DNA of 49,610 nt from Escherichia coli (GTDB lineage Bacteria; Pseudomonadota; Gammaproteobacteria; Enterobacterales; Enterobacteriaceae). Made by a program: the position numbers and the translations under genes. The notes below the pieces were generated by a model. That model did not search any database and had not been told where the DNA came from. It saw only the letters and a program-made list of their open reading frames with translations. Shown here piece by piece: positions 1 through 49,610 of this stretch. The stretch's first letter is position 1, and each line of letters opens with the position of its first letter. The stretch lies in assembly GCA_036348995.1 (NCBI GenBank), contig GCA_036348995.1_4855.1; one strand, written 5' to 3'.

Positions 1-127
1 CAAATATTCGGCGGGAAATGAATCAGCAAGCACCCATCCAAGATACACAGACATCGCCATTACCGGAATGAACACCAGAAACGCGACCATGCCAGTGCAA
101 GCGAAACCCAGCACATACATGATCATG
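1..127. repeat. terminal direct repeat, copy 1 (identical to 49484..49610)
   Basis: 127/127 nt identity between window start and end, read directly; implies circular or terminally redundant genome. Confidence 0.95.
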
Positions 128-385: not shown

Positions 386-904
386 ATGCCAAACCATGTA
401 ACAAACAGAATCACGATTGTTTGTGCTGACAAGCAAAGCATTGATGAATTTAAAGATGGATGTATTACCAATGGTGCCATTGATTTTAATAAAATAATCC
501 CATTGCCACCATTTATCGCAAATGGCAATGGTTTGACGGTCGGGAGCAGAGAGGATGGTACTGGGCGTAATTGGTACAAATTCCACCTGGATAAATGGGG
601 AACGAAATGGAATGCTTATGATTGCTCAATTGTAGAGCAAGAAAATAAAATGATTATTACATTTGATACTGCATGGTCAGAACCTGAAGAAATAGTACGA
701 GAAATCCACAAATGGTTTCCTGAATTTATGTTAACACACGAATATTTTGATGAGGGTTGGGGTTTCTTTGGGTGTAAAAGATATGGAGCGCTTGGTATAT
801 TTGGAGGTACATATAAGGATAGGGTGGAAAATGAAGATTTATTTATGAAATTGTGCATTGAATTAAAAGGATACAATCCGGACGAAGATGAGGATGAAGA
901 ATAA
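386..904 (+). CDS. hypothetical Trp-rich protein with poly-acidic C-terminal tail (DEDEDEE)
   Basis: ORF with SD GAGGTGA 374-380; in-frame ATGs at 368/380/386; stop overlaps next start (TAATG). Confidence 0.55.
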   Translation: MPNHVTNRITIVCADKQSIDEFKDGCITNGAIDFNKIIPLPPFIANGNGLTVGSREDGTGRNWYKFHLDKWGTKWNAYDCSIVEQENKMIITFDTAWSEPEEIVREIHKWFPEFMLTHEYFDEGWGFFGCKRYGALGIFGGTYKDRVENEDLFMKLCIELKGYNPDEDEDEE

Positions 905-1713
905 TGACAACCCTATCCAAACGTTACGCAAACGCAGAAACGCGCAACGGTATTGCTGTTAACAAAACCTATCTCGTGCCAGTGGAGCGAATCTATCTGG
1001 AGCCGGGATATAACATCCGTGAAGCAGATGAGCAGCATGTGGAGTATTTCGCGCAGTGCTGGGAGTCAGGTCAGCCGCTACCAGCATTAACAGTTATTCC
1101 AGATGAGAAGGGAATCCGCATTCTTGATGGTCAGCATCGCTATCTCGGCGCATTGCGTGCTATTGATCGTGGCGCACCAATCGTTCGCATTGAGTGCAAA
1201 GATTTCACTGGCGATGAGGCGGATAAAATTGCCTTCATGGTGTCATCCAGCCAGGGTAAGCAGCTTGACCCGTTTGAGCGCGCGAAGGCTTACACGAGAC
1301 TGAAAGGCTTTGGCTGGACGAATGAAGAAATCGCCAAGAAGGTAGGGCGCTCAGTGTCTGATGTGCAAATGCATCTGTCGCTGGGTAATGTGCCAGCGGA
1401 GGTGAAAGCGCGCATCAGTGCAGGGCAAATCAGCTATGCAAATGCCGTAGCGGTAACGCGAGAGCATGGTGATGATGCGGTTAAAGTTATCGATGAGGCC
1501 GTGGAAGAGGCGAAGGAGCAAGGCAAGGATAAAGTTACAGCGAAGGTGCTGAGGTCGAAAAAGATTAAGCCAGTAGACCGCCTGATTGAGTTATTGAAGC
1601 AAGCCGACCATGTAATTCTTCCCGCTGGCCATGAGTTGAAGGAGGATGAGGAATTTATCCAGATTCCTGTTGCTGATATTCACGAGGTTATGGCAATTCT
1701 GGAGAAGATGTGA
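904..1713 (+). CDS. ParB-like nuclease-domain protein with DGQHR motif (DndB/DpdB/DUF262-like)
   Basis: motif ILDGQHRYLGALRA; translationally coupled to flanking genes. Confidence 0.7.
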   Translation: MTTLSKRYANAETRNGIAVNKTYLVPVERIYLEPGYNIREADEQHVEYFAQCWESGQPLPALTVIPDEKGIRILDGQHRYLGALRAIDRGAPIVRIECKDFTGDEADKIAFMVSSSQGKQLDPFERAKAYTRLKGFGWTNEEIAKKVGRSVSDVQMHLSLGNVPAEVKARISAGQISYANAVAVTREHGDDAVKVIDEAVEEAKEQGKDKVTAKVLRSKKIKPVDRLIELLKQADHVILPAGHELKEDEEFIQIPVADIHEVMAILEKM

Positions 1714-1886
1714 TGACACCAGAACAATTCATCGAAAAACAGCTGCGCGCCAAACTTCCTGGAATCGACCAGATGGCAATTGATGCGGCAATCCAGTATT
1801 ACAAGAGCAATCAGAGCGCAAAGAAGGGCGGTATTTTTGAAGAATGCATGAAGGTTGCAAAGCAACATATGATTAAGGTGAAGTGA
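1713..1886 (+). CDS. small hypothetical protein (57 aa)
   Basis: ATGA overlaps at both ends; hand translation MTPEQFIEKQLRAK... Confidence 0.45.
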   Translation: MTPEQFIEKQLRAKLPGIDQMAIDAAIQYYKSNQSAKKGGIFEECMKVAKQHMIKVK

Positions 1887-2422
1887 TGAAACTAAAAATC
1901 AGCAAATTATTACTTGAGTCAGCATTAATATTTCAGGCGCGCAATGATGTGCGATATTACCTGAATGGCATCTGCTTTATGACTGATGGTCGTATTGCGT
2001 CAACTGACGGTCATCGCGCATTCATTGGTGGCAGCCATGACAATAAGCTGACAGAAAGTGTGATTATCAAGATTGGCAAGTCACCAACAAAACGCTATGA
2101 GTACGCCATACTTGATACTAAGTCGAAAATTGCAACGTATCATGATGAAGCTGGTGTGATGGTTGGCTCTGGTATCTGCGAAGAGATTGATGGTCGATTC
2201 CCTGATATTGATCGCGTGATACCAAAGGAAACGAAAGCAGCAGAGGAAATTAGCTTCAATTCTGGCTACCTTGTTGATATTGAGAAAGTGGCGAAGCTGT
2301 TTAACCCTAAATTCAGTAGCGTTAAGTTTGAACTGAATGGAAATACAAATGCCGCAGTTTGCTGTCTTAGTGCGCCAACTGGCGAGACTGCGAAGATTGT
2401 TGTTATGCCTATTCGCCTGTAG
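1886..2422 (+). CDS. truncated DNA polymerase III beta sliding-clamp (DnaN) homologue, about 1.5 domains
   Basis: motifs DVRYYLNG, STDGHRAF, DGRFPDIDRVIPKE, SFNSGYLVD and C-terminal IVVMPIRL match E. coli DnaN domain II and end of domain III (from memory). Confidence 0.75.
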   Translation: MKLKISKLLLESALIFQARNDVRYYLNGICFMTDGRIASTDGHRAFIGGSHDNKLTESVIIKIGKSPTKRYEYAILDTKSKIATYHDEAGVMVGSGICEEIDGRFPDIDRVIPKETKAAEEISFNSGYLVDIEKVAKLFNPKFSSVKFELNGNTNAAVCCLSAPTGETAKIVVMPIRL

Positions 2423-2464
2423 CAATCAAAAGACCCTGACTAGGTGTTTTGTTTATAATAAATA

Positions 2465-2506
2465 TTGACGTAGATACCTAATGACCGCAATATGAGTGAT
2501 GTAGAT
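2465..2506 (+). promoter_or_regulatory. promoter region with TTGACGTAGAT and GTGATGTAGAT motifs upstream of PP-loop gene
   Basis: TTGACG 2465-2470; GTAGAT 2501-2506; SD AAGGAG 2511-2516. Confidence 0.4.
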
Positions 2507-2526
2507 ATAAGAAAGGAGCGACGGAC

Positions 2527-3339
2527 ATGAATCAAGTTATTAGCTTTTCAGGCGGTAGAACTTCAGCGTTTATGACGCTGGAGGTGCTGAAGATACATCC
2601 AGAAGCAGAGGTTATATTTATGGACACTGGAGCAGAGCACCCAAAAACGTATGAGTTTATTCGCAACTTCGCAAAGCATTTCAATGTCGCCGTGACGTGT
2701 CTTCGTGTGGTGCCAAATCATGAGATGCGCAAAGCAAGTACGTATGAGCAGCTAACCGTCGATGAGATTGGTCCAGACCTTGAGCCGTGGCGGAGGGTGT
2801 TGCGCAAGTACGGTCATCCATATGTTGGTGGGGCGTTTTGCACAGACAGAATGAAGACTGTGCCATTCACGAAATACTGCAATGAAAAATACGGGAAAGG
2901 AAATTACGAAAGGTGGCTTGGTATAAGGATTGATGAGCCAAACAGACTAAAAAACCGGGCTGATGGTTTTCATTACCTTGCAGACATCAGCGACTTTGAA
3001 AAGCAGGATATCCTTGACTGGTGGTCAACGCAACCATTCGACCTTGGTATTCAGGAGCATCTTGGTAATTGCGTTTTCTGCATCAAGAAGAGCCTGCAGA
3101 AAGTTGCACTTGCTGCAAAGGATGAGCCGGAACTTGCTGCTGAATTTTGGAAGATGATTCAGGATGAAGATAAAAAACCAGACAAGATAATGTATCGTTC
3201 AAACAGAAGCCTTGGCGACGTTATAGCTTTATTTAACGATGTAAGCAGGAATGAACTGGCATCACGGATGACTTCAATGCGCCAGTACGATCCTGGTTCA
3301 TGCAGCGAGAGTTGCGAAGCATTTTCTAATGAGAATTAA
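2527..3339 (+). CDS. PP-loop ATP-pyrophosphatase superfamily enzyme (PAPS-reductase/DndC/QueC-like) with C-terminal Cys cluster
   Basis: N-terminal SFSGGRTS PP-loop; CxxC and CxxxC near C-terminus; SD AAGGAG. Confidence 0.75.
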   Translation: MNQVISFSGGRTSAFMTLEVLKIHPEAEVIFMDTGAEHPKTYEFIRNFAKHFNVAVTCLRVVPNHEMRKASTYEQLTVDEIGPDLEPWRRVLRKYGHPYVGGAFCTDRMKTVPFTKYCNEKYGKGNYERWLGIRIDEPNRLKNRADGFHYLADISDFEKQDILDWWSTQPFDLGIQEHLGNCVFCIKKSLQKVALAAKDEPELAAEFWKMIQDEDKKPDKIMYRSNRSLGDVIALFNDVSRNELASRMTSMRQYDPGSCSESCEAFSNEN

Positions 3340-7734: not shown

Positions 7735-8223
7735 TCATACTCCTGCTTCTTGCGTTTCGCTTTCCCCATGATTACCTCTTACATTGCGAAGAAGTGAATT
7801 AAACAGATTGCTCACGTTTACTTCCTGCTCCTGCCATGAGTAACGCCATAGCTTCTTGTGGTGGTCATAGCTTCGCGTCACATCGCCGTTATGAAACATG
7901 ATTCGGATGCGGCTTTTCACGATGCGATAATCAATGCCAGTGGCAGCGCTGATTTCTTTCACCTCTGCGCCAGCGCTATCAAGCAAATGACACTTAATTG
8001 CATCATCAATACCAGCGGCATCATCAGAGATGAAATATTTATACTGCCACTTCCCACCGCGAATCACTGACTTCTCTCGGCGAATGAAGCCAAGTGCGAG
8101 CATCTCATGCAAACGATGCGTTGTGGTGCTTGAATGCTTACCGCCGCAATGCTTTTCAATGTATGCTCGCGTTGCGCCAGGATGATTGAGAATCACGCGC
8201 ATGATTTGTGACTTATAGTCCAT
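7735..8223 (-). CDS. hypothetical protein, possible DNA-binding
   Basis: ORF track, start moved to internal Met (MDYKSQ...) after HNH stop; DNA-binding role is a guess. Confidence 0.35.
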   Translation of the reverse strand: MDYKSQIMRVILNHPGATRAYIEKHCGGKHSSTTTHRLHEMLALGFIRREKSVIRGGKWQYKYFISDDAAGIDDAIKCHLLDSAGAEVKEISAATGIDYRIVKSRIRIMFHNGDVTRSYDHHKKLWRYSWQEQEVNVSNLFNSLLRNVRGNHGESETQEAGV

Positions 8224-9212: not shown

Positions 9213-9440
9213 TCAACCGTTACTGGTTGAACTATAAACCACCGCAGATATAAGCTCGTCAGCCTTTTCACGACCCGCAACCTCCGCTTCAAGTGCCAGT
9301 GAACACATGGCAGTTTCCACATACTTAATGGTATCCTCGCGAACGTTAAGGATTTCCATAACCTCGCGAACTTCCTTCTGATATCTCGCTGCTATTTCTT
9401 TGTATCGCATTTCCACATCACCTTTTTCGTTGTGGTACAA
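9213..9440 (-). CDS. hypothetical protein
   Basis: ORF track; divergent from plus island at 9511. Confidence 0.35.
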   Translation of the reverse strand: MYHNEKGDVEMRYKEIAARYQKEVREVMEILNVREDTIKYVETAMCSLALEAEVAGREKADELISAVVYSSTSNG

Positions 9441-9510
9441 TCTACGTCAATAAGTATTGACTAAATGATGTAGATTGGTCAACAATAATTTTCGAAAAGG
9501 AGTAGTAAAT

Positions 9511-9726: not shown

Positions 9727-10210
9727 TGTATTCGAATACCGTGATGGTCAGTTGTATTGGAAGATAAGGCCTGCGAATAGGGTTAAGGTTGGTGACATTG
9801 CTGGGTCAAAAAACAATAAAGGCTATCTTTTATTTGATTTCAAAGGCAAAAAACACCCTGCGCACAGGGTGATCTGGGAAATGCATTACGGTACTATTCC
9901 GGATGGAATGGAAATTGACCACATAAACCACATCCGTGATGACAACAGAATTGAAAATCTTCGCCTTGCTAGTCATGCGGAAAATACCCGCAACATGTCA
10001 AAGCACAGATACAACACTAGTGGAGTGACTGGTGTGTGCTGGCATAAGCACCAAAGGAAGTGGGTAGCACAGATAATGTTTGACGGAAAGTATACATGCC
10101 TAGGTTATTTTGTCGATTTTGATGAGGCTGTAAGATGCAGAAAATCAGCAGAATTAAATTTAGGATTTCACAGCAATCATGGGGATTTAAAAAGAAATGA
10201 ACCTGAATGA
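9707..10210 (+). CDS. HNH homing endonuclease (NUMOD4-like N-term, HNH, AP2-like C-term)
   Basis: EIDHINHIRDDNRIENLR; GVTGVCWHKHQRKWVAQI. Confidence 0.85.
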   Translation: MMMNWNDVFEYRDGQLYWKIRPANRVKVGDIAGSKNNKGYLLFDFKGKKHPAHRVIWEMHYGTIPDGMEIDHINHIRDDNRIENLRLASHAENTRNMSKHRYNTSGVTGVCWHKHQRKWVAQIMFDGKYTCLGYFVDFDEAVRCRKSAELNLGFHSNHGDLKRNEPE

Positions 10211-12684: not shown

Positions 12685-12728
12685 TCTGCCTCCTGTTCAA
12701 ATAATAACTAATTCTATCACAACGGCTA

Positions 12729-12757
12729 TTGACGTAGATTGTGTGGTAGTGCATAGT
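12729..12757 (+). promoter_or_regulatory. sigma70-like promoter (TTGACG-N17-CATAGT)
   Basis: near-duplicate of the 317..345 cassette, including the downstream GAGGTGATGAAGATG leader. Confidence 0.5.
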
Positions 12758-12789
12758 ATCTACATCAAACGGTGAATGAGGTGATGAAG

Positions 12790-13104
12790 ATGAAAATTAA
12801 CAATAGAGAAGAATTAATTAAACTGCTGGAGTTAGCGAAAGAAAAAGGCGCATTGAAGTCAATTGATGATTTGAGCTTGCGCGATATACGCATAGAGACG
12901 CCTGATGGCGCAAGATTTCGTATTGAATGGTATTGCAATATATGCGCACTGAAGAACGCTGGCTTTTCAATGTGGTTTGACTGCATTGTATTTACGCAAA
13001 CTCACCCATGCTTCCTGAATGAGATCAGGTTGTCATATCAAGGGGTGGTAACTGGCGTTATAGGTAAGCCACTAGACCATTTAACAAAGTCATTCGAGGT
13101 GTAA
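12790..13104 (+). CDS. hypothetical protein
   Basis: leader identical to that of the gene at 386. Confidence 0.45.
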   Translation: MKINNREELIKLLELAKEKGALKSIDDLSLRDIRIETPDGARFRIEWYCNICALKNAGFSMWFDCIVFTQTHPCFLNEIRLSYQGVVTGVIGKPLDHLTKSFEV

Positions 13105-16835: not shown

Positions 16836-16863
16836 TCACATTTCTGTAAGGGTCATTATATCA

Positions 16864-17701: not shown

Positions 17702-17908
17702 TCACCCCCTCAAAAAATCATTCTTGCAGCAGATACCCTTGTATCCACGCTTCTTTTGCAGGTTAACGAAAACATCATCAATAACGCGCAGCAGGAAATC
17801 CTCGTCGATGTCATACCGACGACAAATCACCTCATCAGGCACACCAGCGCGTGCCAGTGAATAAACCTGTTCTTTTTCCTCCTGTGTGAATCCTGCATAG
17901 CTGCGCAT
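17702..17908 (-). CDS. small hypothetical protein, possible DNA-binding
   Basis: internal Met start with GGAG SD; DNA-binding role is a guess. Confidence 0.35.
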   Translation of the reverse strand: MRSYAGFTQEEKEQVYSLARAGVPDEVICRRYDIDEDFLLRVIDDVFVNLQKKRGYKGICCKNDFLRG

Positions 17909-18006
17909 AGTGATATCTCCGATAAGCCTGATGTAGATTATACTATGCGCTCGGTGTAGATTGGTCAAGTGTGGTGATGCGGATTTATCAACAACAATAA
18001 TAAATG

Positions 18007-18035
18007 TTGACGATGGCATGCTGGTGATGTAGATT
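18007..18035 (+). promoter_or_regulatory. sigma70-like promoter TTGACG-N17-TAGATT
   Basis: exact spacing; preceded by two more GTAGATT motif copies at 17929-17964. Confidence 0.55.
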
Positions 18036-18070: not shown

Positions 18071-18247
18071 ATGTTTGAAGCATACAAGTCAAAAATAACT
18101 GGCAGCACATATCTGTTTGCACCAGCTAATGGGCTGGTTTTTGTTCATCGTGATAGAGATAACATTGAATCCACGAGAATGACAAAAGAGGATATAGATG
18201 TGTATGTGCGAAACGGAGTTATGGAAAGAGTGGAGTATTCAGCATGA
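18071..18247 (+). CDS. hypothetical small protein (moron)
   Basis: SD AGGTGA; plus-strand island with its own promoter and terminator. Confidence 0.4.
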   Translation: MFEAYKSKITGSTYLFAPANGLVFVHRDRDNIESTRMTKEDIDVYVRNGVMERVEYSA

Positions 18248-18426
18248 GCCATACAAGACCAAGAGTTGACAGGAAGGTAAGAGAAAAGGCAATAGAGCAT
18301 TTTAAAAGTCACCATGGGAACCATTCCAACGAGGTGATTGTTGGTATAGATATAGAGAAGATGAAAGAAACCGCAAAACACTACAAAGGAAGGGTTAATC
18401 TTGCAGACTACGGAATAATGGAGTAA
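18244..18426 (+). CDS. hypothetical small protein (moron)
   Basis: ORF track; ATGA overlap with previous gene. Confidence 0.4.
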   Translation: MSHTRPRVDRKVREKAIEHFKSHHGNHSNEVIVGIDIEKMKETAKHYKGRVNLADYGIME

Positions 18427-18427
18427 G

Positions 18428-18458
18428 AAAAGCCCTCATTCGAGGGCTTTATTTTTAT
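18428..18458. terminator. bidirectional intrinsic terminator
   Basis: hairpin AAAGCCCTC-ATTC-GAGGGCTTT plus T-run. Confidence 0.7.
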
Positions 18459-20989
18459 CGCCTGCGCCGGATTAGCATCCCGCTACCGCGCTGAACGATA
18501 TGGTCATTGAGTGCGTAACGAACTGCATCCCAGTAGTGGTTGTATGCATCAACAATATCCGTGAGCACATTCCCTGTCAGCTTATCGACCTTGTAGCTGT
18601 ACATTGCTGCCTCATTCTGCATCTCCTTGCATCGTTCGTGAATGATGATGCTGTCGCAGCCGCGTAACCATGTTACTCCATCCTCGACACTTCCGGGCCA
18701 TTTCGTGCATGGGTGAATGTCAAGTCCTGAACGCTTGATGTGGCTGATGGTTTCTGGTCGTGCGCAGTCGGCATACCATCGCGCGCGCTTAGCCATCGGG
18801 AATGATTGCTCCATCGCAGCTGGCGTATCGGTAATTTCAAGGCCGACCTTGCCGTACTCGCGATTAATATAAATGTTGCGTCGTCCGACCGGTAATTCTT
18901 CGATATAAACCTCAACCATTGCGGTAGGGTCCGTACTGAATCCGAAGTCCATCCCGAAGTATGGTCCATGCCATTCAGGTTTGACCTCGAAGTTATCAAT
19001 GCGCCACTTGCCACCAAATACCTGCTCGTCATTCCTCTTGTTAAAGCGCCCACCCCAAACCCATTGATAGCGGTCGAAGTCTGTCTCTTTCATGCGTTGC
19101 ATTTGGCTTGGCAGTGGAGTATCCCAAAACCACGGATTATCTGAATAGTTACACTCAATAATCAGGTTTTCTTCGTCCTCGTAAATACCGCCATTGGAAC
19201 GCAGTTTACTGTAAAACGGCTCAACCCACGTCTTCCATGTAGGGTCGTGCTCCTTATTTGGGTTGAATGTCACCCATATCTCAGAGCCGTCTGCGCGAAT
19301 GGTTGGAGTGAGGATTTCCCAGCTTGTCTGGCTAACGTTTTCAGCCTCCTCAACCCAAGCAACTGTAATGCCAGCAAAACCTTTAACGGTAGTCTGGTTG
19401 CGATACAGACCTTTAAAGCGGAACTTTGCTTTCGTTACCTTGTGTGTTATTTCGTTGTTGATGACGCGAAACTCTTTTGTCTCGCCCTTCCTGTCAATCT
19501 CGTCTTTCAGCTCCTGATATGAACTATCCTCAATAGACTGCTGAATCTCACGAAAACAAGCTATCCTGTCAGGCTTAAAGCGTGCACGCTCGGTAAGTAT
19601 TGTAGTTACTGTTCTTGTTTTTCCGCTGTTATGTGTAACCGTGCCATCAGCAAGCAGGAAAAGATGATCGCCATCAAGAGTGAATCCAGCGTATTCACCA
19701 TGCCCGGCATAAGACAATGACACCTCAGTCATCTTTCCACGGGTTGACTTGGTTTTCTCTGCCATCTTCCTTTTTACTCGGCATGGGATTGTATGAAGGT
19801 CACCACTAACGAACACCTCCCACACATCCTTTTCGTATATTCTTTTCTCGCCTTTATATTCAAAGGTGACATCGGTCTTTTTAATTATGCTTGACTTGAA
19901 GCCAAGCGATCTTGCCACATCCATCAAAGAGAAGGCTATATCTTTATTTATTGATGTAAAACAATAGCTTTTCTTTTCTTTGTGGTAATGCGAATCAGTA
20001 TCCAATAGCCCAGCCAGAATCTGAAGTCTTACCTCTCTGCTGTTTTTGATATAGCAGTCAGGTATGTGTTTATTATTAATCACCCCAAGCTGCTGCATTT
20101 TAGTTAGTAACGGGTTGGTGTTTTTCCCCATACCAGCAGCTCGACCATTAGTTATCGCATAGACGGGGCATCTATCATCGTCGCGAACCTTTACCTGCAT
20201 CCCGTATTGGCTTGCCACGTTGTAAAGGTAGTCAACTATCTCTGGATCAGGTGTGCACACTTCAACACTACGAGATGAGCCATCACCTAACCATAAACCA
20301 AGAAAGTACGGGTCAACTGGAACGCTTTGCTCCTGAAAATCCCATCCTGTTCGCCAACCTTTAAAGACATGACGGAACTTTTTGGAAGTTGCGCGCGACA
20401 AATATTCTGAAACACCGATATTAAGTATTTCCGGGTCATTTGGGTAATAACGATAAATTCTTTTACCATCAGGTGTTTTCGTCTCATTACTGATGGCAGA
20501 TGGGACCTTTCGTAATGACAGTATGTGACTTGAATTGACGGTGTAGTCATCAGCATATTTTTGATGAACCGTGTACATGTCATCAAATCCACGGCAGATG
20601 CTTAAAACATTTCGTGGTTTACTGTCTGGCCCCATAACCTTATCGCCAACAACGATATCCTCTACGCGTTTTAGGCTACCATCAAACATCCTCACCATCG
20701 TGCCGATGGCTAAGCATCCGCGCCCGCCAAACACAATCTTATTTCGCTTGGGGTAAAGTAGCTTTTCCAGCTTTTCTGGTATCAGGTGGTCAACGTTAAT
20801 ATCAGAGTCGCTAACGTCATCAACTCCGCTTTGCGTCATTTTGAGTTTGCGAACAATCTTCTTATCTGTATTAACAACACCGAACACAGCAGATTCAGGC
20901 GTATCAATCACGCCATCGCCAATAATCTCTTCAAGTTTTTCAATTGCTGGTGCTGACAGTCTTTTGCGTGCCATATATAGATTCCTCAT
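18455..20989 (-). CDS. terL: terminase large subunit interrupted by an intein
   Basis: Walker A GGRG|SGKT split by a 363-aa insertion; 481-aa extein. Confidence 0.9.
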   Translation of the reverse strand: MRNLYMARKRLSAPAIEKLEEIIGDGVIDTPESAVFGVVNTDKKIVRKLKMTQSGVDDVSDSDINVDHLIPEKLEKLLYPKRNKIVFGGRGCLAIGTMVRMFDGSLKRVEDIVVGDKVMGPDSKPRNVLSICRGFDDMYTVHQKYADDYTVNSSHILSLRKVPSAISNETKTPDGKRIYRYYPNDPEILNIGVSEYLSRATSKKFRHVFKGWRTGWDFQEQSVPVDPYFLGLWLGDGSSRSVEVCTPDPEIVDYLYNVASQYGMQVKVRDDDRCPVYAITNGRAAGMGKNTNPLLTKMQQLGVINNKHIPDCYIKNSREVRLQILAGLLDTDSHYHKEKKSYCFTSINKDIAFSLMDVARSLGFKSSIIKKTDVTFEYKGEKRIYEKDVWEVFVSGDLHTIPCRVKRKMAEKTKSTRGKMTEVSLSYAGHGEYAGFTLDGDHLFLLADGTVTHNSGKTRTVTTILTERARFKPDRIACFREIQQSIEDSSYQELKDEIDRKGETKEFRVINNEITHKVTKAKFRFKGLYRNQTTVKGFAGITVAWVEEAENVSQTSWEILTPTIRADGSEIWVTFNPNKEHDPTWKTWVEPFYSKLRSNGGIYEDEENLIIECNYSDNPWFWDTPLPSQMQRMKETDFDRYQWVWGGRFNKRNDEQVFGGKWRIDNFEVKPEWHGPYFGMDFGFSTDPTAMVEVYIEELPVGRRNIYINREYGKVGLEITDTPAAMEQSFPMAKRARWYADCARPETISHIKRSGLDIHPCTKWPGSVEDGVTWLRGCDSIIIHERCKEMQNEAAMYSYKVDKLTGNVLTDIVDAYNHYWDAVRYALNDHIVQRGSGMLIRRRR
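19628..20716 (-). mobile_element. intein with LAGLIDADG homing endonuclease inside terL P-loop
   Basis: starts Cys (CLAIG), ends HN followed by Ser; LGLWLGDGS and LAGLLDTDS motifs. Confidence 0.85.
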
Positions 20990-24038: not shown

Positions 24039-24141
24039 TATTAATCCTCACAATAAAGATAACACATAGCTGTTATCATATCAAGATGATAATGCAAGCC
24101 ATTATCACAATAAAAATATCAAAAAGTGATAGCTTTCCCGG

Positions 24142-24681: not shown

Positions 24682-24710
24682 AATCTACATCAGTTGTGAT
24701 TCTACGTCAA
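24682..24710 (-). promoter_or_regulatory. leftward early promoter TTGACG-N17-TAGATT
   Basis: on minus strand: TTGACG at 24705-24710, TAGATT at 24682-24687. Confidence 0.55.
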
Positions 24711-24720
24711 CACACAGAGA

Positions 24721-25310
24721 AAGAAAAATCACGACTAAATGTTAGTGAACGTTAGCTTACATATATAGTTACATACATTACTAATAGTAACCTTTGTTTA
24801 TTACCTCTATAAAGTATATTAAGATCTTCTCTATATTTATTATAGATATTAGTAGCTTAGGTCGCAGAAACACGAAAACCAGCAATTAAGCTGGTTGATT
24901 TCAGTGGTTTCTATTTTTTTCTAATTTCTTCTACTTTCCGACCCGATGGGAAATGAAATTCCTTTTGTTTTTAGATGCTTCCAAGCGTTTTATTCTCTAT
25001 TTTCTATTTCCCGAGAATCATTTTGGTTTTTTTTCTTTCCAGAATTTTTTTTCAAAAGTTCTAGGTTTTTAGGAATTTAGAAATTAGAACTTAAACCTTT
25101 GATTTTACTGGTGTTCCATTTCCCAGTCATCTGGGAAATGGAAATTTGCATGTTATTGAAAATCAAGGTGAATTTCTATTTTCCACACCTTTATACTCCC
25201 GTCTGGAGGAATCGTCAATACTCATAACCAGAACAATCGACGTGGAATGTGTTGACTGCTCGTTTGTATTTTTTTATACTTTTATCAAAGTTCAGATCAA
25301 TGTGAGGCAA
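24721..25310. promoter_or_regulatory. AT-rich divergent control region with iterons and perfect inverted repeat; candidate origin
   Basis: no ORFs; repeated TTCTATTTTC and GGGAAATG(A/G)AAAT; 11-bp IR CCATTTCCCAG-TCAT-CTGGGAAATGG at 25116..25141. Confidence 0.45.
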
Positions 25311-25313
25311 GTG

Positions 25314-28695: not shown

Positions 28696-28724
28696 AAAGC
28701 CCGCAAACGCGGGCTTTATTATTT
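28696..28724. terminator. bidirectional intrinsic terminator
   Basis: hairpin AAAGCCCGC-AAAC-GCGGGCTTT plus T-run. Confidence 0.7.
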
Positions 28725-28964
28725 AACAATCCATTTTGTAACAGCTGGCCTTAAATCTTCCTTTCTGAAAACTCCACCAGTAAGTTTCTCGGCATCAATT
28801 GCTGCTGTAGCGCTAATTCTTCCTCTTGACACCCACTGATTGACAGCCTGTTTTGACACACCAAGAAACCTTGCCAGTTGTGATTGCCCTCCAACATAAT
28901 CAATCAGCTCTGATAGCTTTGTCTGTTCCATTTCTCTTATCTGTTCTGCGATGCTTTTCATGTG
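28719..28964 (-). CDS. Cro/YdaS-like helix-turn-helix regulator
   Basis: QSQLARFLGVSKQAVNQWVSRGR; lone minus-strand gene inside replication island. Confidence 0.55.
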   Translation of the reverse strand, partial: HMKSIAEQIREMEQTKLSELIDYVGGQSQLARFLGVSKQAVNQWVSRGRISATAAIDAEKLTGGVFRKEDLRPAVTKWIVK

Positions 28965-29095
28965 TTTACCTCTGCTATCTGTATGCAGCAATAATGAACT
29001 CAAAAAAAATTTTCGTCAAGGTATTGCGTTTACCATCACGTTGACGTATCTTTAAGTCACACCAGCGATATGCTGAGTTAAATCGAGAGGACACT

Positions 29096-35775: not shown

Positions 35776-39116
<3,341 letters not shown>

Positions 39117-40505: not shown

Positions 40506-40618
40506 GTGGAATCCTCTTTGCTTTGTTGATGTATTTTAGCACGGCGCAAGTTTCACCACTCCATCATGAGCTGGTTTAAAATGCATCCGTTCCATGATGT
40601 TTTGCCATCTAAAATAGA

Positions 40619-40648
40619 TTGCAAAAATTCTACATTTGAATGTAGGAT
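40619..40648 (+). promoter_or_regulatory. promoter with palindromic operator CTACATT-TG-AATGTAG
   Basis: inverted repeat at 40630..40645 between TTGCAA and TAGGAT. Confidence 0.45.
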
Positions 40649-40679
40649 TTAATTGTCACATTAAACAGGAGAAATAATC

Positions 40680-41250
40680 ATGAAACTGCAAACATTAGAG
40701 TTCCCGTACGGAGAGATCACTTTCGACCGTGAAAATTTTATTAACGTTAATGAGCTTGTTAACCAGATGAACCGCTGGAGACTGGATAATGGGATGGGGA
40801 CAAGAGAAATACGACAGGTAATGGCAACTGATGCATTTAAGGTCTTGCTTGCATCTGGCTGTATATATAGCAGAGCAATACAGCACATATTTCCATTTCC
40901 TTGTCATCGACCGATTCATTACGCAGAGACAGGTTGAGTTGCGAAATATTGGTGCGGTAAGTTTCGTGGAACTTAATGCTGCCGTCAGCAGAATGCTTGA
41001 ACGCACTGAGGGTAGAATTGGTCATAGTGGGCATTTCATTCAGGTGGCAAAGTCAGTCAAGGAGTCGATAGATATCCGTGAAGTTACTGGGTTTGACACA
41101 TGGGACTCTCAGGATGCAAAAACTAACCAGTTACGCAGTGATATCCAGAAGTCTCTTGTCACACTTCTGGATATGGAAGCGGTCAACTCATGGGATGAAC
41201 TGAAAGAAACGATACCGAGGGTCGTACGTAAATGCGCTGATAAGATTTAA
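40680..41250 (+). pseudogene. plus-strand moron gene split across two frames at a TATATATA run
   Basis: frame A 40680..40937 and frame B 40831..41250 overlap by 107 nt; junction near 40872-40880. Confidence 0.3.
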
Positions 41251-44371: not shown

Positions 44372-44411
44372 CCTGAATTTGACTGATGTTGATTATATCA
44401 TCTCAGTGGTG

Positions 44412-44440
44412 TTGACACCTGCAAGGCGGTGATGTAGATT
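44412..44440 (+). promoter_or_regulatory. sigma70-like promoter TTGACA-N17-TAGATT
   Basis: exact spacing; GGTGATGTAGATT block. Confidence 0.55.
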
Positions 44441-46069: not shown

Positions 46070-46208
46070 TTCGATCTCCGAATTGTGTTAGCTGCTAACG
46101 TGGTGATTATATCACAGCAGTATAAGCAACCTTGCTTGTCACGATAAGCAGATTGATTTGATGAGTTTGTGTTGATGTAGATAATGGAGTTAAACAAAGG
46201 AGGAAATC

Positions 46209-46880
46209 ATGAACGCATTAATGAATGTTGGTAAAGTGCAAACCATGTCAAGCCGTGAGATTTCGGAGTTGACCGGGAAACGGCATGACAATGTTTTGGC
46301 TGACATACGAAAAATGTTAGCTGAAATTCAATCTCCTGAAAAGTTAGGAGATTACAAAGACAGCAGAGGGCGCACGTATCAAATGCTTCTTTTGGATAAA
46401 GAGGAAACGTTAATCCTGATTTCAGGGTACAGCATAAAAATGCGCGCGGCTATCATCCGGCGCTGGCAGGAACTGGAATCACAAGTGAGCAAACCAGCAC
46501 TACCTGATTTCACCAACCCGGCGGAAGCTGCGCGTGCGTGGGCCGCTGAGTACGAACAGAAATTAATTGCGCAGGAGAAGCTATCGATAGCAGCACCAAA
46601 AGCCGAGGTTTATGACCGCATCATCGACCGAAACAATCTTTACAATGCAACACAGGTTGCACAGAAGTTTGGACAGTCAGCAGTATGGCTAAACAGACAG
46701 CTTGAGCAATTCGATGTGTACAATCGCTCTGTTAAGCGTGGACGAGTCTTCCAGCAATGGTTCATCGACAAAGGATACGGCATTATGCGCGAGACAGAAA
46801 CAGGGCACTCACAAGCTATGTTTTATGCTGAAGGAGAGATGTGGATTATCGGCAAGCTAACTGACGAAGGCTTGATTTAA
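46209..46880 (+). CDS. antirepressor (Rha N-terminal domain + KilA-C/AntC domain)
   Basis: SSREISELTGKRHDNVLADIRKM; C-terminal AQKFGQSAVWLNRQL...WFIDKGYG. Confidence 0.75.
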   Translation: MNALMNVGKVQTMSSREISELTGKRHDNVLADIRKMLAEIQSPEKLGDYKDSRGRTYQMLLLDKEETLILISGYSIKMRAAIIRRWQELESQVSKPALPDFTNPAEAARAWAAEYEQKLIAQEKLSIAAPKAEVYDRIIDRNNLYNATQVAQKFGQSAVWLNRQLEQFDVYNRSVKRGRVFQQWFIDKGYGIMRETETGHSQAMFYAEGEMWIIGKLTDEGLI

Positions 46881-46888
46881 CATCATAG

Positions 46889-46917
46889 TTGACAGTGATT
46901 ATTTTGTGGTGTAGATT
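46889..46917 (+). promoter_or_regulatory. sigma70-like promoter TTGACA-N17-TAGATT driving leader and tRNA
   Basis: exact consensus spacing; no terminator between it and the tRNA. Confidence 0.55.
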
Positions 46918-46924
46918 TGGATTT

Positions 46925-47287
46925 AACAGAGATTGGTTCCCTGATTTAATTTAATTACAGCCAATCCTTCAATTACAATTAGCGGTCGAGAGACGCCGGA
47001 CGCGTAACCGGCACACAACAGGTAAGAGCATTGGGTAATGTCAGCCTTGGTTCGAAGTTGAAAGACATGCGGTAATACCCAGCCCAAGTTCCAGTGCTCT
47101 TTCCGTTGAGGTGAATGAGCTAGATGGTGATGTAAAGGCTCACCATGGCGACGAATGCAGTCCGGGATAGCACCGGACACCACAACACTTAATATCCAGC
47201 ATTATCGCAATCATATGTAGGGGTATGTATGGGTTACGGGGCTGGGTGTTAAGAAAGCACGCTGGCAATGCTTAAACCAGCACTTAT
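46925..47287 (+). ncRNA. candidate structured leader RNA upstream of tRNA
   Basis: about 360 nt without convincing ORF; local hairpins such as GCCGG-ACGCGTAA-CCGGC. Confidence 0.25.
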
Positions 47288-47364
47288 GGACGCGTAGCTT
47301 AATTGGTTAAAGCAACCGAATCATAATCGGATGATTGAAGGTTCAAATCCGTCCGTGTCCACCA
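47288..47364 (+). tRNA. tRNA with anticodon CAU (Met or Ile2-type), CCA encoded
   Basis: hand-folded cloverleaf: 7-bp acceptor stem, D-arm GCTT/AAGC, anticodon loop ATCATAA, T-loop TTCAAAT. Confidence 0.75.
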
Positions 47365-49192: not shown

Positions 49193-49609
49193 TTATAGAT
49201 TTGAATCAGCGAAAAAACAATGGCGACCACGCCAAGAATAATGTCCAATTTCGCCGCCCCATTTAAAAGTGATGGAAAGGATGAACAGATGGATGCCGAT
49301 AATAATAAATGCGTACTGCGCATGAAGCGGCGTTTCTACAGGCGTGATAAATTCCCATACGAATGACTCTATCGCAACCAGCCATTCGTAAAGGCTCATT
49401 GTCAGCACGCAGAGCGCCATCTTTGTACTTTTGCGCAGTGCAATAGCCGGGAACAACCAGACCATAGACTGCGCAAGGTAATACAAATATTCGGCGGGAA
49501 ATGAATCAGCAAGCACCCATCCAAGATACACAGACATCGCCATTACCGGAATGAACACCAGAAACGCGACCATGCCAGTGCAAGCGAAACCCAGCACATA
49601 CATGATCAT
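49193..49609 (-). CDS. multi-pass membrane protein, 5-prime end runs off the window into the terminal repeat
   Basis: 3-4 hydrophobic segments; in copy 1 an upstream in-frame ATG lies at 148-150. Confidence 0.4.
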   Translation of the reverse strand: MIMYVLGFACTGMVAFLVFIPVMAMSVYLGWVLADSFPAEYLYYLAQSMVWLFPAIALRKSTKMALCVLTMSLYEWLVAIESFVWEFITPVETPLHAQYAFIIIGIHLFILSITFKWGGEIGHYSWRGRHCFFADSNL

Positions 49610-49610
49610 G
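49484..49610. repeat. terminal direct repeat, copy 2 (identical to 1..127)
   Basis: exact 127-nt match to window start. Confidence 0.95.

Follow-up and report, generated by a model that had tools for sequence, protein, structure and literature searches.

Why should promoters scattered over a phage genome share more sequence than host RNA polymerase needs in order to recognise them? The question is raised by a 49,610-nucleotide contig of an Escherichia coli assembly (GCA_036348995.1_4855.1; the window, below, means this whole stretch), in which an 11-bp word, TGRYGTAGATT—here called the box—recurs in promoter regions, most densely around positions 17929..18035. The box is a real, well-conserved, promoter-associated motif that is found on nearly all promoters of the non-structural operons in this virulent phage and its relatives, defines a regulon-like promoter class, and was not previously described for this phage group; on the box sequence and the promoters of the Skatevirus-Roufvirus cluster, the searchable literature gave only primers and genome announcements, and on gene-expression timing in this cluster it gave nothing. 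The reading that we favour, with a probability of roughly 0.5, is that the box would mark those sigma-70 promoters, as a class, that drive non-structural operons, and would serve them as an asymmetric operator for a trans-acting repressor.

The first 127 bases of the window recur at its end (1..127 = 49484..49610, 100% identical), a repeat with the look of an overlap that the assembler left on a genome that is circular or circularly permuted, and the window is therefore taken to be a circularly closed assembly of a complete genome of 49,483 bp. Megablast places it in a cluster of virulent enterobacterial siphophages (Skatevirus/Cedarrivervirus) that includes Shigella phage Sf11 (Cedarrivervirus), Salmonella phages LPSTLL and Segz_1 (Segzyvirus), and E. 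coli phages swi2, C1, and Sa179lw, with Klebsiella phage KpV2811 and “Vibrio” phage pYD38-A (Roufvirus) as more distant members; relatives are ~90% identical over 55-75% of the length. The BASEL paper handles the cluster as Skatevirus and relatives, with Roufvirus at the root (PMC11990801). By our own gene calls the layout is a mosaic, in which short plus-strand operons, made up of small genes that are mostly unknown and each closed by a stem-loop terminator, interrupt long minus-strand structural and lysis operons.

An earlier, sequence-only reading of the window had described a family of promoters that share TTGACR-N17-TAGATT around an invariant block, GTGATGTAGATT. Every site at which it placed one holds a box copy, and read side by side these sites have TGRYGTAGAT(T) in common. 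Exact copies of TGRYGTAGAT number 13 against 0.24 expected, a count reached in 0 of 100 shuffles, and TGAYGTAGAT with at most one mismatch gives 27 matches (6.0 expected). The proposed block, with at most one mismatch, is matched eight times (0.21 expected); the 12-mer is exact only twice. What does not vary is TG..GTAGA; the third base is R, the fourth Y, and bases 10 and 11 are T in 75% and 63%. All 13 exact copies lie in 5' intergenic DNA—intergenic DNA being 9.3% of the window—and exact and near copies together are spread over nine control regions, singly or as direct or inverted pairs at 10, 17, 23, 25, and 30-31 bp, with leaders of 12-124 nt after the boxes. In composition, the box is a -35-like half (TGACG) fused directly to a -10-like half (TAGATT).

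Promoters that carry the box

The box is laid on promoters in two ways (Table 1). In class B it forms the -10 region of TTGACR-17-TAGATT, supplying the -10 hexamer and the five bases before it; this arrangement occurs only at 18007, 24710 (minus), 44412, and 46889, and TTGACR-N17-TAGATT has four exact matches in the window. In class A (317, 2465, and 12729), the box instead overlaps the -35 TTGACG (TTGACGTAGATT), TAGATT runs into the spacer, and a separate -10 hexamer follows exactly 17 bp on (TATAGT at 340, CAATAT at 2488, CATAGT at 12752), and a second box covers the place where transcription is predicted to start; this box is forward at 348 and 2497, whereas the one at 12757-12767 is inverted. 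The single architecture that had been attributed to all sites thus holds for the class-B promoters and fails for class A. At 46173 the box is present, but the usable -10, GATAAT, is shifted from it by 3-4 nt. The three tandem copies seen at 17929..18035 are three good box copies, of which only the last, at 18025, has a -35 and is part of a canonical promoter on the plus strand. The other two lie on a promoter of the minus strand, at its -10 and start (17929) and in its spacer (17952). This promoter and the minus-strand one at 9482 are built like class A, with inverted boxes.

Hexamers of the sigma-70 type at a spacing of 16-18 bp were found at 317, 2465, 12729, 18007, 24710 (minus), 44412, 46158, 46889, 9482 (minus), and 17968 (minus), but not at the box-only copies taken alone (9466, 9440 minus, 17929, 17952, and 12758 minus). 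UP-like AATAATAAAT tracts stand ahead of several -35s, and all sites are upstream of, and co-oriented with, a gene. The proposal that these are sigma-70-type promoter regions ahead of short, terminator-ended non-structural operons is supported. Two start-site copies make poor -10 elements: the one at 348 lacks the T at -7, and TAGATA of the one at 2497, used as a -10, would put the start inside the Shine-Dalgarno (SD) sequence AAGGAG (2513-2518).

Table 1. Promoters, boxes, extended -10 elements, and candidate regulator genes in the window
Feature	Position	Strand	Elements	Remarks
P317	317..358	+	-35 TTGACG 317-322; -10 TATAGT 340-345; boxes TGACGTAGATT 318-328 on -35 and TGACGTAGAA 348-357 across predicted start site	drives 386..3339, including the ParB-like gene
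P2465	2465..2507	+	-35 TTGACG 2465-2470; -10 CAATAT 2488-2493; boxes TGACGTAGATA 2466-2476 on -35 and TGATGTAGATA 2497-2507 over start site, 31 bp apart	drives 2527..3339 (PAPS-reductase-like)
Divergent control region	9433..9482		inverted box pair: TGACGTAGATT 9439-9449 (minus), TGATGTAGATT 9466-9476 (plus)	
Promoter in 9433..9482	9482..9453	minus	TTGACC-18-AATACT; one box in spacer, one over start	layout of 9482..9439: TTGACC-AATCTACATCA...AATACT...TGACGTAGATT
Extended -10	9433-9441	+	TGGTACAAT	
P12729	12729..12767	+	-35 TTGACG 12729-12734; -10 CATAGT 12752-12757; boxes 12730-12740 on -35 and, inverted, 12757-12767 over start site	
Extended -10	12711-12719	minus	TGATAGAAT	faces lysis operon
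Boxes of 17929..18035	17929-17939; 17952-17961; 18025-18035	+	TGATGTAGATT; GGTGTAGATT; TGATGTAGATT	
Degenerate box copy	17974-17986	+	GTGATGCGGATT	
Promoter of gene 17702..17908	17968..17940	minus	TTGACC-17-TAGTAT; boxes 17929 and 17952 overlap	layout of 17968..17929: TTGACC-AATCTACACC...TAGTAT-AATCTACATCA
P18007	18007..18035	+	TTGACG-17-TAGATT	drives 18071..18426
P24710	24682..24710	minus	TTGACG-17-TAGATT; boxes on both hexamers: TGACGTAGAAT 24699-24709, TGATGTAGATT 24682-24692	drives 24651 leftwards: small open reading frames, then terminase
P44412	44412..44440	+	TTGACA-17-TAGATT; box 44430-44440 = -10 region	
Extended -10	44392-44400	minus	TGATATAAT	back-to-back with P44412, faces tail operon
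Extended -10	46106-46114	minus	TGATATAAT	faces major tail gene
Promoter of 46209..46880	46158..46185	+	TTGATG-16-GATAAT; box TGATGTAGATA 46173-46183 overlaps spacer and -10	drives Rha/Ant-like gene
P46889	46889..46917	+	TTGACA-17-TAGATT; box TGGTGTAGATT 46907-46917	
TGMTADAAT words	300-308; 12711-12719; 16855-16863; 38352-38360; 40533-40541; 44392-44400; 46106-46114	minus (7/8)	no -35	directly upstream of structural/lysis operons
68-residue core protein	17702..17908	minus		first gene beside densest box cluster; candidate box-binding regulator
MarR-like protein	7735..8223	minus	apparently two tandem winged-helix units	second candidate
ParB/Spo0J-family protein	904..1713	+	ParB-HTH and KorB domains; GERR motif partly degenerate, GQHR	in P317 operon
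Cro/YdaS-like helix-turn-helix (HTH) protein	28719..28961	minus		in box-free replication module

The box promoters have a counterpart. Words of the extended -10 type, TGMTADAAT, occur eight times in the window against 3.9 expected, so that their count alone is not significant, but their placement is striking and marks a second promoter class, that of the structural and lysis operons. Each of four box promoters is paired back-to-back with an extended -10 promoter that serves such an operon, and at 300, 12711, and 44392 the extended -10 is only 8-11 bp from the -35 of the divergent box promoter, so the footprints of two polymerases must overlap. The box itself is no extended -10, which would have TG at -15/-14; its TG falls at -17/-16, with R and Y at -15/-14.

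Two of the class-A promoters, 317 and 12729, had been taken for near-duplicate promoter-leader cassettes moved by recombination. Only ~57% of 112 aligned columns are identical, and identity is confined to TTGACGTAGATTG, ATAGTA, and a generic SD-plus-start, GAGGTGATGAAGATG; the alignment does not demonstrate such a transfer. Beside this, the strong SD-plus-start GGTGATGAAGATG at 373-388 and 12777-12792 and the class-B box context GGTGATGTAGATT disagree at only 2 of 13 positions, which is why both places score as one-mismatch box matches; the resemblance is probably fortuitous, given that relatives differ in the spacer. P46889 is followed by ~360 nt of non-coding DNA and then by tRNA-Met (47288..47364). 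Over these ~360 nt (46924-47287), where relatives hold tRNA-Ser/Arg or other inserts, we saw no convincing open reading frame (ORF), and the segment may encode an RNA that has escaped recognition or act as a leader that is processed.

Conservation of the box across relatives

The box extends beyond the window, at both equivalent and non-equivalent promoters: exact copies number nine in Sf11, ten in LPSTLL, and eight each in KpV2811 and pYD38-A. It recurs in more than 80 related genomes, out to Roufvirus, and over 84 loci its density is 2.2 per 10 kb against 0.08 expected. When each orthologous group in 84 genomes or loci is represented by a single member, TGRY precedes GTAGA in 65 of 534 independent, non-orthologous sites, where ~8 would be expected. 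The 534 GTAGA sites revealed no conserved flank and no dyad symmetry around the box, the only extra information being T at positions 10 and 11.

P317, the promoter of the ParB-like operon, offers the clearest test of conservation, with 43 unique orthologues in which we counted the deviating sequences per column. The -35 TTGACG and the TAGATT after it each deviate in 0-1 of 43 per column, and the -10 TATAGT in none, whereas the next ten spacer bases deviate in 7-20 sequences at eight columns (3 and 0 at the other two) and the linker of 2-3 nt takes seven different forms. The start-site box, TGAYGTAGAA, is again nearly fixed (0-2 of 43, but 6 at the Y position). TAGATT and the start-site box are thus as invariant as the hexamers while the spacer is free, which upholds the earlier claim that conservation goes beyond what sigma-70 needs, and for this reason an additional, operator-like function is plausible. 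The more specific suggestion of an operator half-site is not sustained, the box being asymmetric, devoid of conserved flank, and no half of a palindrome.

P12729 shows the same pattern. In its orthologues the inverted start-site box keeps ATCTACATCA while the following 4 nt are free, and in phage Vi II-E1 both P12729 boxes are mutated together. P44412 has 30 unique orthologues, the Roufvirus version having a different spacer and TGACGTAGATT, and distant contigs in which ParB is only 71% identical keep the same three box placements. Sf11 and LPSTLL retain the arrangement of 17929..18035, Sf11 adding one more box at the -35 of P18007; in the LPSTLL orthologue of 9433..9482, a forward box on the -35 replaces the inverted spacer box. 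Orthologous promoters in LPSTLL and Sf11 show box turnover, in place or in orientation. At four loci with ParB only 44-46% identical (L080-L083) we saw neither the box nor an obvious replacement motif, and the box gave no sign of co-varying with ParB-like proteins of distant relationship. Scanning IMG/VR outside the cluster for TTGACR-N12-TGRYGTAGATT gave, among the matches listed, only single coding-region ones in unrelated contigs, a number that we estimate to be at chance level.

The 5' leader after P317 (358-388), ACAACAATAAATGTTAGAGGTGATG, is almost invariant in 63 unique sequences (L005-L083), and the first gene behind it differs among relatives, with many N-termini; the window's own 386..904 is absent from four relatives. 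The P317 promoter-leader thus acts as a mosaic junction, a single leader standing before a variety of first genes, and the box would account for the role of promoter-leader junctions as mosaic boundaries.

What the box may do and what may bind it

Sigma-70 recognition explains the hexamers and their spacing. Several features go beyond it: the invariant non-consensus G in TAGATT, the TGRYG half, a TAGATT that trails a working -35, the copies at 348 and 2497, and the inverted copies. Start-site boxes run both ways (348 and 2497 forward; 12757-12767 and 17929 inverted), which does not fit strand-specific sigma recognition, while a factor that binds double-stranded DNA and occludes the polymerase would cover all box placements with one assumption. 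We infer that the box would mark one class of host sigma-70 promoters, those of the short terminator-bounded non-structural operons. Placed on the -35 or -10 hexamer or across the start site, pointing one way or the other and commonly present twice per promoter, it would be occupied by a trans-acting DNA-binding protein, most likely phage-encoded, which would exclude RNA polymerase and silence the whole class together. Given the back-to-back layout, such a shut-off would free the extended -10 promoters of the structural and lysis operons from competition. The box-driven operons are probably early or middle, as judged from their gene content.

It is possible, if somewhat unlikely, that the boxes are a family of strong sigma-70 promoters and nothing more, alike through shared ancestry, with extra bases that tune RNA polymerase binding or form overlapping or tandem weak promoters, TAGATT being a second -10, and with no added factor. 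TAGATT does retain A-11 and T-7, TGACG is 5/6 of a -35, the 17-bp geometry is perfect at four sites, UP-like tracts precede several -35s, all copies aim at a nearby gene start, and none of the tested regulators is universally retained. Yet two features that depart from the sigma-70 consensus, G at -10 and TG at -17/-16, do not vary across genera. TAGATT after a functional -35—a position with no known sigma-70 role—is conserved like the hexamers beside a free spacer. Copy 348 is without T-7, inverted copies at start sites or in spacers are senseless as elements of the promoter on which they lie, and most box-only copies are without any -35.

Other observations weigh against a phage-encoded repressor at the box. 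Each copy points towards a gene that begins 19-131 nt downstream of it, so the orientation data also fit a pure promoter or a single self-contained element. Part of the invariance reflects shared ancestry, many of the compared genomes being close relatives. A host factor may be the binder. Beside the sites of known host factors (CRP, FNR, MetJ, Fur, LexA, DnaA, and others), the box may bear a partial likeness to the CRP consensus, in its left half and centre, and to TTGAT-N4 of FNR, but the second half-site is missing.

The remaining difficulties concern the candidate regulators. The product of 17702..17908, predicted to be a sigma-region-4/LuxR-like HTH protein, is the best candidate for a box binder. 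Two boxes cover its own promoter, and co-occurrence favours its gene (206 records) over the MarR-like one (156 phage records). The AlphaFold2 model has three helices, like sigma region 4 or LuxR/GerE HTH domains; against this, the HTH call comes from one model and non-specific fold matches (Foldseek E >=0.39), and Pfam gave no match. The gene starts at ATG 17908, with GGAG 8 nt upstream and a Met shared by the shortest homologues; the mechanical ORF 17702..18019 is an over-extension.

The sequence-only reading had named two other regulators, the MarR-like product of 7735..8223 and the Cro-like product of 28719..28964, neither of which held up well. The second recognition helix of the MarR-like protein (Y-x-I-x-K-x-R-x-R) is conserved, and its tandem winged-helix reading draws on sub-threshold Pfam matches and alignment; the AlphaFold2 model was too poor for use (predicted local distance difference test, pLDDT, 54). 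In Roufvirus the protein is only 38% identical while the box is unchanged, and in one relative (L156, a 45,367-bp genome) it is cut to its first 23 residues (10001-10165) with nine boxes kept in 20 kb, so that this candidate, dispensable in at least one relative, is weakened. The ParB-like protein, 78-95% conserved, is likewise cut to 33 C-terminal residues in CHRF_10023.1 (L084), which keeps 15 boxes. The same deletion junction occurs in SB28, ST44/46/65, KE08/12/13, and CHRF_10034, a lineage of at least nine phages in which boxes were counted genome-wide in CHRF_10023.1 only. In that genome an HTH+HNH insert lies upstream of the ParB-like remnant (1250-2700; SB28/ST44/ST46/KE lineage).

Could the boxes nevertheless be sites of the ParB-like protein, acting as a KorB-style global silencer, or operators of the Cro-like repressor? 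We regard either as very improbable. With its HTH and KorB domains, the ParB-like protein is truly homologous to ParB/Spo0J, and the promoter of its own operon, P317, holds the best-conserved box pair. KorB of RK2 binds operators scattered at promoters. ParB and KorB sites, however, are palindromic where the box is asymmetric, and no recurrent palindrome was found in the genome, so that, with the gene deleted in a box-bearing genome, the ParB-like protein was rejected as binder. The Cro-like protein was rejected as well, its gene being absent from three of five box-bearing genomes (LPSTLL, KpV2811, and pYD38-A, with 8-10 boxes each) and its own control region, 28962..29095, holding no box.

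A doubtful alternative to repression is that the box is a self-contained promoter for a polymerase redirected by the phage, for example via the 17702..17908 product, giving a middle class that overlaps host-type early promoters, much as T4 has its late or middle promoters. Consistent with this, the element is compact (11 bp) and strictly oriented to genes at leader lengths of 12-124 nt, boxes without a -35 precede 9511, 9410, and 46209, the class-A box is centred near -30 like the T4 MotA box, and the 17702..17908 product has its predicted sigma-region-4-like fold. Set against these, the register of the box on TTGACG/TAGATT equals host hexamers at 17 bp, as use of host sigma-70 predicts; copy 2497 would start inside an SD; as promoters, tandem copies spaced 10-31 bp apart would be superfluous; and Pfam scans of ~60 proteins found no MotA, AsiA, gp55, or sigma-family domain. 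It is also improbable, though conceivable on the same structural model, that the 68-residue protein competes with sigma-70 at the box as an 11-bp “promoter mimic” and flips the polymerase to the structural extended -10 promoters.

Comparison with known systems bears on the repressor reading, since the box is a non-palindromic site with many copies over the genome that overlap promoters, as dispersed asymmetric operators do; its closest functional analogues would be those of P1 C1 and of mycobacteriophage L5 gp71. P1 C1 operators are likewise asymmetric, present genome-wide, single or paired, in either orientation, and overlap the -35 or -10 of otherwise ordinary sigma-70 promoters, a layout through which a single factor could govern many operons; they are 17 bp long against 11 bp for the box, and the phage here is virulent, without a lysogeny module. 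The only repressor domain found in Pfam scans was the dispensable Cro-like one, no search aimed at P1 C1 homology having been made. The 13-bp sites of L5 gp71 (GGTGGMTGTCAAG) are short and asymmetric, number ~10-30 per genome, and contain a -35 hexamer, as the box does, so that the site can double as a promoter element. L5 stoperators, however, lie mostly within transcribed regions in one orientation, whereas all exact box copies are in promoter regions, with both orientations relative to the promoter that they overlap, and no gp71-like protein is evident.

Other systems match less closely. RK2 KorB/KorA shares with the box one operator type at many promoters and a ParB-family gene in a controlled operon, but KorB operators are 13-bp palindromes, and the asymmetric box survives loss of the ParB-like gene. 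A Cro/CI arrangement of the lambda type does not fit an asymmetric box, a box-free cro-like control region, and a gene missing from three of five genomes. T4 middle promoters resemble class A in having a phage-specific word near -30 and a host-type -10; in T4, however, the MotA box replaces the -35, whereas here TTGACG is retained and the box is also found at -10 and +1, sometimes inverted, so that the MotA-dependent geometry is only partly mimicked. The lambda PR' pause site, with a -35-like TTGACT 1 bp from a -10-like element, recalls the abutting pentamer and hexamer of the box, and class-A promoters do have a copy in the initial transcribed region. The start-site copies nonetheless occur in both orientations, and the one at 348 lacks the essential final T; on these two grounds sigma-dependent pausing there was ruled out, and no Q-type antiterminator domain was found. 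Membership of the box in any named family cannot be claimed.

Other elements and meaning for the phage group

Several further elements were seen in the window. Upstream of the primase module, 600 bp of AT-rich DNA without coding function (24711-25313, G+C content about 0.39) contain GGGAAATGRAA/TTCYATTTCCC words recurring both ways (24947-25185) and a perfect 10+10 palindrome (25117-25140); from its sequence this region looks like a replication origin with iterons. A gap in a minus-strand small-ORF operon (24058-24107) holds three adjacent palindromes with GATAA/TTATC arms, GATAACACATAGCTGTTATC, TTATCATATCAAGATGATAA, and TGATAATGCAAGCCATTATCA, the last resembling a Fur-box-like dyad. The 12+12 imperfect palindrome AAATTCTACATT/AATGTAGGATTT (40625-40650) and a second dyad (40600-40626) lie upstream of small plus-strand genes at 40680; a likeness of the palindrome at 40630..40645 to the box had been suggested, but it shares only ATGTAG and is not a copy, and these dyads, unrelated to the box, may form a separate operator.

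Between the gene for a 147-residue protein and the large terminase gene, Rfam matches the int-alpA RNA (RF02996; 20994-21057, minus; 40.1 bits, gathering score 35.8). The large terminase (18455-20974, minus) has 839 residues and is matched over its full length in KpV2811 and pYD38-A (92% identity), and over only 46% in Sf11 and LPSTLL, which suggests that this allele has gained an insertion, either an intein or an endonuclease. Among the five genomes compared, only this one has the genes 386-904 (DUF1281_C/Api92-like) and 2527-3339 (a PAPS-reductase-domain protein); both are driven by box promoters and are possibly anti-defence or DNA-modification cargo.

The general principle, that operators spread over many sigma-70 promoters can serve one phage regulator, is well established. 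For the Skatevirus-Roufvirus cluster, many of whose Salmonella, E. coli, Shigella, and Klebsiella phages are in development for therapy and biocontrol, the box maps one promoter class and the extended -10 the other, and the two together give a testable model of the temporal switch, a short list of candidate regulators, and promoter parts that are defined well enough to be used in engineering these phages. If the 68-residue protein did compete with sigma-70 as sketched above, it would be a one-protein early-to-late switch for Skatevirus, Cedarrivervirus, Segzyvirus, Macdonaldcampvirus, and Roufvirus.

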